28,560 nt of DNA from assembly GCF_003334815.1 (NCBI RefSeq), contig NZ_QOWO01000045.1; one strand, written 5' to 3'. Position numbers and translations under genes: made by a program. Source of the DNA: Escherichia coli (GTDB lineage: Bacteria > Pseudomonadota > Gammaproteobacteria > Enterobacterales > Enterobacteriaceae). The notes below the pieces were generated by a model. That model was not told the DNA's origin and made no database searches. It saw only the letters and a list, made by a program, of their open reading frames with translations. Below are positions 20,936 to 21,284 of the stretch, one piece after another. How positions within the stretch are numbered: the stretch's first letter is position 1; every line of letters starts with the position of its first letter.

Positions 20936-20958
20936 TTATCCACTATTCCTGTGGATAA
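20936..20958. promoter_or_regulatory. Pair of inverted DnaA-box-like 9-mers (TTATCCACT / TGTGGATAA) in the upstream uvrB promoter region
   Basis: TTATCCACT at 20936-20944 and TGTGGATAA at 20950-20958 fit the DnaA box consensus TTATNCACA. Confidence 0.5.
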
Positions 20959-21261
20959 CCATGTGTATTAGAGTTAGAAAACACGAGGCAAGCGAGAGAA
21001 TACGCGGCTTGCACGCGAATTGGCGTTAAAGACGGCTCAAAGAAATATCTTTTATTTTTTAACTGGTTAGATAAATGCAATGGCAGTCACTGAACAGGCA
21101 TCTCTTGCCATAAAACTGTCATCACTCATCTTGACAAATGTTAAAAAAGCCGTTGCTTTGGGGATAACCCGGTAAGGCCGGAGTTTTATCTCGCCACAGA
21201 GTAAATTTTGCTCATGATTGACAGCGGAGTTTACGCTGTATCAGAAATATTATGGTGATGA

Positions 21262-21284
21262 ACTGTTTTTTTATCCAGTATAAT
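21262..21284 (+). promoter_or_regulatory. LexA (SOS) box overlapping a TATAAT -10 element of a uvrB promoter
   Basis: ACTGTTTTTTTATCCAGT (CTGT-N9-CAG) immediately followed by and overlapping TATAAT at 21279-21284. Confidence 0.7.

Follow-up and report, generated by a model that had tools for sequence, protein, structure and literature searches.

In the spacer between bioD and uvrB of Escherichia coli two separate elements, both already characterised, are very probably present, namely the core of DARS1, which serves DnaA recharging and through which the uvrB promoter P3 is repressed, and the high-affinity LexA operator of the uvrB promoter P2. The DnaA boxes and the LexA box lie together inside this 578-bp spacer of the window, that is, the whole analysed stretch of 28,560 nucleotides. 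The explanation has two kinds of basis: identity, geometry, non-randomness, and conservation were computed, and binding, ADP release, and in vivo phenotypes were taken from the literature. No observation made in the analysis spoke against it.

The first-pass annotation had placed here a uvrB control region with an inverted pair of DnaA-box-like 9-mers (TTATCCACT, 20936-20944, and TGTGGATAA, 20950-20958) and, downstream, an SOS box (ACTGTTTTTTTATCCAGT, 21262-21279) overlapping a -10 element (TATAAT, 21279-21284). All these positions are exact, and the overlap is confirmed, since TATAAT shares its first T with the 18-mer ACTGTTTTTTTATCCAGT and the dinucleotide TA with the 20-mer at 21261-21280. 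The multiple promoters that had been suspected correspond to the published P1, P2, and P3 (PMC6015884). LexA and DnaA footprinting had been named as the check, and published footprints, together with ChIP-seq data, do show binding at both sites (PMC6015884; PMC11317965).

Location and Identity of the Elements

A segment of 1301 nt of the window was found to be 100% identical to positions 812,400-813,700 of E. coli K-12 MG1655 (NC_000913.3), where bioD and uvrB are annotated; the window coordinate equals the K-12 coordinate minus 792,171. The bioD-uvrB region as a whole (20700-21420, 721 bp) is at least 95% identical in 5424 of 5426 complete E. coli genomes. DARS1 has been mapped in K-12 to the bioD-uvrB intergenic region, at 17.5 min, and the three boxes found here coincide with that locus, being intergenic and upstream of uvrB. 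The homology arms of the primers used for the deletion of DARS1 (PMC4585315) read as window positions 20753-20788 and 21230-21269, and thus the published deletion brackets the element at 20936-20970. When compared with DARS1 of K-12, this is the same element, with sequence, three boxes, flank, and neighbours all equal. The features of the region are collected in Table 1.

Table 1. Features of the bioD-uvrB region in window coordinates. Distances (+n) are counted from the first base of box I.
Feature	Position	Strand	Sequence and remarks	Basis
bioD CDS	20099..20776	+	Upstream neighbour in E. coli	RefSeq annotation of identical sequence
DARS1 box I	20936..20944	+	TTATCCACT, one mismatch to TTATNCACA	Sequence; DnaA-box7 of Wurihan et al., 2018
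DARS1 box II	20950..20958	-	TTATCCACA, perfect consensus (TGTGGATAA on + strand)	Sequence; DnaA-box6 of Wurihan et al., 2018
DARS1 box III	20962..20970	-	TAATACACA, one mismatch	DnaA-box consensus search
DARS1 flanking "regulatory" region	20971..21012	.	Conserved blocks TTAGAAAAC and CGAGAG..ACGCGGCTTG (20972-21010)	Conservation, 66 species
Candidate IHF-site block	21057..21081	+	+121 from box I; E. coli TTTTAACTGGTTA, 2 mismatches	Conservation
Conserved block	21131-21147		TTGACAAATGTTAAAAA	Enterobacteriaceae and Erwiniaceae only
Distal DnaA-box-like element	21159..21167	-	TTATCCCCA (TGGGGATAA on + strand), one mismatch	+223 from box I
Conserved block	21159-21168		TGGGGATAAC	Spacer alignment
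uvrB LexA box (LexA-box1)	21261..21280	.	AACTGTTTTTTTATCCAGTA	Identical to published box (PMC6015884)
P2 -10 hexamer	21279..21284	+	TATAAT	First two bases (TA) common to LexA box
P1	21288..21316	+	-35 TTGGCA (21288-21293), 17-bp spacer, -10 TAAAAT (21311-21316)	Promoter scan, 10/12 matches
uvrB CDS	21355..23376	+	673 aa	ORF and RefSeq annotation of identical sequence

The Three-Box DnaA Core

The layout of the core is 9+5+9+3+9: box I on the plus strand, 5 bp, box II on the minus strand, 3 bp, and box III on the minus strand, with boxes I and II head-to-head and box III in the same orientation as box II. Three 9-mers with no more than one mismatch to TTATNCACA, as looked for in a DARS, were found (1, 0, and 1 mismatches, respectively), and box I opposes boxes II and III at the spacing of other DARS. 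This agrees with the published definition of the DARS core as three boxes, I to III, with box I opposite to II and III and with equal spacing at both loci (PMC6868365; PMC5742627). Box II of DARS1 has likewise been described as a perfect consensus (Sugiyama et al., 2019, PMC6868365; reviewed in Katayama, 2017, PMC5742627), and DnaA-boxes 5, 6, and 7 of the uvrB P3 promoter are equated with DARS1 (Wurihan et al., 2018, PMC6015884). A DnaA ChIP-seq study of 2024 reported a DARS1 peak 16-fold over the control, with a double DnaA box, cTAATACACAtggTTATCCACAg (PMC11317965); window positions 20949-20971, which comprise boxes II and III, give this string when read in reverse complement.

Single DnaA-like 9-mers show no enrichment in the window, with 19 found and about 25 expected. 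Among 1000 simulated windows, seven contained a head-to-head pair separated by 5 bp. The arrangement of all three boxes is beyond chance expectation: none of the 1000 simulations produced it, and analytically it should occur 1.4e-7 times per window, or 2e-5 times per genome.

The primary function established for DARS1 is the stripping of ADP from ADP-DnaA, by which ATP-DnaA is regenerated for initiation (PMC6868365; PMC5742627). The pair formed by boxes I and II is essential for ADP release, whose mechanism requires that the two boxes face each other head-to-head, in inverted orientation, across a gap of 5 bp (PMC6868365). According to this model, ADP-DnaA would first be loaded onto the perfect box II, and more protomers would then be recruited, to box I in head-to-head orientation over the 5-bp gap and to box III in head-to-tail orientation over the 3-bp gap. 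A head-to-head AAA+ contact, dependent on Gln208, would loosen the ADP held by the protomers on boxes I and II; apo-DnaA would fall off and rebind ATP, with a rise in ATP-DnaA and an advance in replication initiation. Some 40-50 bp downstream of box III would boost the release of ADP, and a flank of ~42-50 bp past box III was indeed reported to enhance it in vitro (PMC4585315; PMC5742627). A degenerate box III' is known to adjoin box III (PMC6868365) and is probably represented by the conserved block TTAGAAAAC, for which we infer TTTTCTAAC (minus strand, 20974-20982) as the exact 9-mer.

The published length of DARS1 is 101 bp. In E. coli, its function needs neither IHF nor Fis and is independent of supercoiling (PMC5742627). 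Deletion of DARS1 lowered the number of origins per mass and strongly reduced fitness in colonisation of the mouse gut (PMC4585315).

A related core is found in DARS2 of K-12, located upstream of mutH, which reads TTATTCACC, 5 bp, CTATCCACA inverted, 3 bp, and TTCTTCACA inverted. DARS2 has the same 9+5+9+3+9 core geometry and also releases ADP from ADP-DnaA; it differs in that all its boxes are off consensus and bound more weakly, and in that IHF and Fis are needed. DARS2 is, moreover, the dominant, cell-cycle-timed site and is not part of an SOS promoter. The DARS of plasmid ColE1, on which this activity was first discovered, is alike by description, with 70 bp and three DnaA boxes, two of them essential in a specific orientation, but is an element of a plasmid origin region. 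DnaA-repressed promoters, such as those of dnaA, mioC, and nrdAB, and the so-called double DnaA boxes resemble boxes II and III, which share their orientation and lie 3 bp apart, and P3 is likewise an overlapping promoter repressed by DnaA. Such a same-orientation pair 3 bp apart was the best predictor of DnaA ChIP signal (PMC11317965). The dnaA, mioC, and nrdAB promoters, however, lack the opposed box at 5 bp that is the hallmark of the DARS core.

The LexA Operator of uvrB

The LexA box has the form CTG-N10-CAG expected of a LexA site (CTGTTTTTTTATCCAG, 21263-21278), with A or T at nine of the ten spacer positions. The box was placed by others between the -35 and -10 elements of P2 (PMC6015884), and TATAAT is thus taken as the P2 -10 element. 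The promoter detected by the scan at 21288-21316 fits the published P1, downstream of P2. Transcription from P1 is predicted to start near 21320-21323, and that from P2 about 30 nt upstream of the P1 start. With 2 bp in common with TATAAT and with TTGGCA 7 bp downstream, the LexA box is in a position to occlude the promoter. In footprints this site was protected at the lowest LexA concentration, having the highest affinity in the region, and mutation of the LexA box derepressed P1-2 (PMC6015884). A LexA dimer at 21261-21280 would block RNA polymerase until LexA cleavage is stimulated by RecA, and relief of the block by cleavage would make uvrB an SOS gene.

The bare pattern CTGT-N9-CAG occurs five times in the window, with 2.35 expected, and is not significant alone; the significance of the LexA box stems from its conservation and from the literature, not from pattern frequency. 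Of 66 Enterobacterales, 65 carry a LexA box with the right half TATCCAG upstream of uvrB, and in 45 of those 65 species a TANNNT hexamer abuts this box. By strict pattern matching, no LexA box was found in Edwardsiella hoshinae or in the nine Aeromonadales loci. Within E. coli, 4896 genomes have an unchanged sequence over the 71 nt that span the LexA box, P2, and P1.

When compared with SOS promoters of Gammaproteobacteria, whose consensus is TACTG(TA)5CAGTA, the uvrB operator is alike in its CTG-N10-CAG form, in its AT-rich spacer, in its position between or overlapping promoter hexamers, and in relief by cleavage. It differs from the SOS consensus, by reading, in five departures from a perfect palindrome. 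In its right half, TATCCAG, a C stands where the SOS consensus has an A, and this C is kept in most Enterobacterales. Owing to this C the right half resembles a DnaA box (TTATCCAGTAT, compared with TTATCCACTAT of box I), and it is the "DnaA-box1" of an earlier report (PMC6015884).

Conservation of the DARS1 Core

For the 61-nt segment 20930-20990, which comprises the core and the first part of the flank, 5422 of 5425 E. coli genomes reach at least 99% identity. One mismatch would already lower this value to 98.4%, and therefore the segment is unchanged in those 5422 genomes. The surrounding 721-bp region, in contrast, is merely 95-99% identical in 2287 E. coli genomes. In two natural strains (NZ_CP025851 and NZ_CM177009), an inserted IS1 separates DARS1 from P1/P2.

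Across species, the uvrB loci of 80 species genomes were compared, of which 66 from Enterobacterales and nine from Aeromonadales carry the core. All 66 Enterobacterales loci have the core, with its 5- and 3-bp spacers, in the region upstream of uvrB. Box I reads TTATCCAC[T/C] throughout this order, with one TTATCCCCC, and is mostly TTACCCACA in the nine Aeromonadales loci; box II does not vary among the 75 core-bearing loci. No core was found at the uvrB loci of Thalassotalea, Colwellia, and Rheinheimera. In a MAFFT alignment of the spacer from the 66 species, the columns of the core are near-invariant, whereas adjacent columns are at random level.

The bioD gene was found within 1.5 kb upstream in just ~22 of the 80 loci, and the position of the core upstream of uvrB is thus independent of bioD. 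In Aeromonadales, a tRNA-Asn gene on the minus strand is located between the module and uvrB, and no LexA box occurs; this arrangement argues against conservation of the module depending on control of the uvrB promoter. The depth of this conservation is not new, since DARS-like sequences adjoining uvrB are already known as far as Vibrio cholerae, according to a statement in PMC6090056 that cites Fujimitsu (2009).

DnaA Repression of uvrB and Other Interpretations

The boxes of DARS1 overlap P3, and strong protection by DnaA at DARS1 was seen in DNase I footprints (PMC6015884). Repression of uvrB is exerted by both DnaA and LexA, and a TG>CA mutation in box II raised P3 activity 5.9-fold, as measured on a plasmid (PMC6015884). 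Given the overlap of the boxes with P3, occupancy of the core by DnaA would also repress this weak, distal promoter. The DnaA input proposed by the first-pass annotation is thus borne out by the footprints and the mutant, although the identity of the site as DARS1, and with it box III, had been missed. These same data are what would be expected if the boxes were a transcriptional operator of uvrB and nothing else, repressing P3 with no part in nucleotide exchange. We consider this very unlikely. The geometry and box III are common to DARS2, which lies upstream of a different gene; the head-to-head 5-bp arrangement is needed for ADP release; and deletion of DARS1 alters origins per mass and fitness. 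The core, furthermore, stays upstream of uvrB with or without bioD, and the Aeromonadales keep the module despite the intervening tRNA-Asn gene and the lack of a LexA box. P3 accounts for ~20% of the promoter activity, a share that hardly explains why 35 bp and the flank are almost absolutely conserved. The DnaA input to uvrB is real, yet probably secondary to DnaA recharging.

The inverted repeat GTTATCCAC/GTGGATAAC might also be read as an RNA hairpin, acting as a terminator or another RNA element for read-through from the bio genes, with its likeness to DnaA boxes being incidental. The scan does flag 20935-20959 as terminator-like, with a 9-bp stem, a 7-nt loop, and a T-containing tail, and the RNA fold has an energy of -13.5 kcal/mol (z = -3.2). 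The tail, CATGTGTATT, is nevertheless a poor U-tract and only four of the nine stem pairs are GC, unlike a Rho-independent terminator, and a much stronger hairpin (20785-20842, -20.9 kcal/mol, z = -3.8) lies directly past the bioD stop codon. A terminator would not account for box III or the conserved flank, DARS2 shares the box geometry without a clean stem, and the stem is invariant, so that no covariation supports RNA pairing. DnaA, finally, is bound at DARS1 in vivo (PMC11317965). A search of Rfam over 20600-21500 at a permissive threshold returned only a spurious miRNA hit, which scored 19.8 bits where the gathering score is 76. With this evidence the hairpin reading is barely credible. 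That the motifs are functionless chance matches has a negligible probability: single DnaA-like 9-mers and CTGT-N9-CAG do occur at background frequency in the window, but the composite is expected ~1e-7 times per window, the core is unchanged in 5422 E. coli genomes, the core and the LexA box recur in 66/66 and 65/66 species, respectively, and footprints and ChIP have been published.

Other candidate features of the spacer were rejected. A terminator-like hairpin at 21169-21181 is not conserved across species and was not taken as functional. A 48-aa ORF (20883-21029) runs over the core; its upstream part is conserved at random level and no codon periodicity was seen, and it was not considered a gene. 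A stem in the flank (GCAAGC/GCTTGC, 20988-21010; fold z = -2.2) is unsupported, its left arm varying without compensating changes.

Conserved Elements beyond the Published DARS1

The DARS1 core and the uvrB LexA operator are already known in detail, and for E. coli they hold nothing new. Beyond the published 101-bp DARS1, however, conserved elements run on to about +232. Most columns of the spacer alignment (MAFFT, 66 species) show 20-40% identity, as expected at random, and several blocks are near-invariant.

The first of the distal elements is the block at +121. In most other species it carries the strict IHF consensus WATCAANNNNTTR, followed by TAAAATCAAG. The consensus at +121 is exact in 21 of the 66 Enterobacterales and has at most one mismatch in 47 of the 66; it is also exact in eight of the nine Aeromonadales, at +119/120. 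At control positions, by comparison, exact matches amount to 0.04% and those with at most one mismatch to 0.5%. In E. coli, no IHF 13-mer with at most one mismatch was found from +40 to +330. The IHF-consensus site at +121 thus appears to have decayed, to two mismatches, in Escherichia and its close relatives.

The second element is DnaA-box-like. The string TGGGGATAA occurs at +219 to +228, mostly at +223, in 62 of the 66 Enterobacterales, and in Aeromonadales a closer DnaA-box match, GTGGATAAC, is found at +234 to +237. The element of E. coli is probably one of DnaA-boxes 2-4 of Wurihan et al. (2018). In addition, 33 of the 66 species have their LexA box at a distance of 324-328 bp from box I.

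A similar order of elements exists in DARS2 of K-12, where two IHF-like 13-mers 3 bp apart are found at +93 and +109 (~93-121 bp from box I), a pair that matches the published description of IBS1-2. This DARS2-like layout, with a core, IHF sites, and further DnaA boxes, suggests that the ancestral DARS1 was assisted by IHF, and by the same comparison the DARS1 homologues outside Escherichia are more like DARS2 than is the DARS1 of E. coli. As a tentative and rather doubtful proposal, DARS1 may be longer than 101 bp and may have been assisted by IHF ancestrally, as perhaps it still is in Serratia, Yersinia, Proteus, and Aeromonas, with this dependence having been lost in the E. coli lineage; the spacing of the LexA box may likewise reflect a constrained nucleoprotein architecture that couples DnaA recharging to the SOS promoter. 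No description of distal elements of DARS1 was found in the literature surveyed, in which the original DARS1 work (Fujimitsu, 2009) is represented through papers that cite it. Conservation and spacing suggest, as the sole lead beyond this surveyed literature, an extended module whose parts keep fixed distances and whose IHF-consensus site has been lost by decay in E. coli.

Concluding Remarks

If this proposal were true, the 101-bp element defined in vitro would be part of a module of ~235 bp with fixed spacing, and DARS1 would be IHF-assisted outside Escherichia. As for E. coli itself, three non-coding loci, datA, DARS1, and DARS2, set the balance between ATP-DnaA and ADP-DnaA, and it is this balance that fixes the timing of chromosome replication; one of the three would be overlooked if these boxes were annotated as a uvrB operator only.

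Conserved elements between DARS1 and uvrB

In the bioD-uvrB spacer, a block downstream of the DARS1 core (DnaA boxes I to III) corresponds to the binding consensus of IHF. The exact consensus, WATCAANNNNTTR, was found at a fixed distance of +121 from box I (counted here and below from its first base) in 21 of the 66 Enterobacterales, and 47 of the 66 deviate from it at this place by at most one mismatch; in Aeromonadales it is exact in eight of nine loci. In E. coli the site has decayed to TTTTAACTGGTTA, with two mismatches. In DARS2 of K-12, the second DnaA-reactivating site, IHF-like sites lie at +93 and +109.

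Farther downstream lies a DnaA-box-like element, TGGGGATAAC, that is nearly invariant among Enterobacterales, including its mismatch to the DnaA box, and is fixed at +223. It matches box II and its flank (TGTGGATAACC) at 10 of 11 positions, and its Aeromonadales counterpart, GTGGATAAC, is located at +234 to +237.

The role in vivo of the DARS1 flank was described in a review as yet to be determined (PMC5742627). Across the 66 species, the flank following box III (20972-21010) contains the near-invariant blocks TTAGAAAAC and CGAGAG..ACGCGGCTTG, so this flank is under selection in vivo.

The block TTGACAAATGTTAAAAA is strongly conserved only in Enterobacteriaceae and Erwiniaceae. No match to a -10 partner was found 16-18 bp from its -35 hexamer, and the literature examined on the region assigns no function to the block, which falls within the segment deleted (-279 to -172) in one published plasmid.

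Features of the DARS1-uvrB region and its homologues (window positions unless a locus is named; L-numbers denote fetched uvrB loci)
Feature	Position	Description
Strong inverted repeat	20785-20842	16-nt arms, 94% complementary; 26-nt loop
IHF-consensus block	21057-21081; in L012-L081, +119 to +133 relative to box I	Two mismatches to the consensus in E. coli
Conserved block TTGACAAATGTTAAAAA	21131-21147	Perfect -35 hexamer and TGnTAAAAA-like stretch
DnaA-box-like element TGGGGATAAC	21159-21168	Reverse complement TTATCCCCA is a one-mismatch DnaA box
Terminator-like hairpin CCGGTAAGGCCGG, then AGTTTTATCT	21169-21190	Between promoters P3 and P2
tRNA-Asn(GTT), example	L068 1293-1368	Minus strand
IS1 in one of L084/L085 (NZ_CP025851.1 or NZ_CM177009.1)	Between P2 -10 and P1 -35	11-bp duplication of 21281-21291
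IS1 in the other of L084/L085	Directly upstream of LexA box	9-bp duplication of 21252-21260

Hairpins in the spacer

The inverted repeat immediately 3' of the bioD stop codon (predicted RNA fold, -20.9 kcal/mol; z = -3.8) is likely the end of the bio operon transcript; a clean U-tract is wanting, and conservation is only partial. The second, terminator-like hairpin is not conserved in other species.

The LexA box and its DnaA-box overlap

The right half of the uvrB LexA box (TTATCCAGTAT, 21271-21281) shares 10 of 11 positions with box I and its flank (TTATCCACTAT, 20936-20946). It agrees with the "DnaA-box1" described in the literature, which overlaps LexA-box1. Most Enterobacterales retain a non-consensus C in the LexA box, TATCCAG instead of TATACAG. 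A strict CTG-N10-CAG upstream of uvrB is absent from a single one of the 66 Enterobacterales, Edwardsiella hoshinae (L056), which nevertheless keeps an intact DARS1 core and an intact IHF-consensus site. The Aeromonadales genomes (L068-L076, L081) have no such box upstream of uvrB; in them, a minus-strand tRNA-Asn(GTT) gene separates the DARS1-like module from uvrB.

Variation among E. coli genomes

The DARS1/uvrB region is missing altogether from one of 5426 E. coli genomes. A few genomes hold two copies, and two matching places in the ecoli_genomes collection are on records classed as plasmids. In two natural isolates, independent IS1 insertions have occurred between DARS1 and the uvrB start, both of which part DARS1 and P3 from the proximal uvrB promoters.
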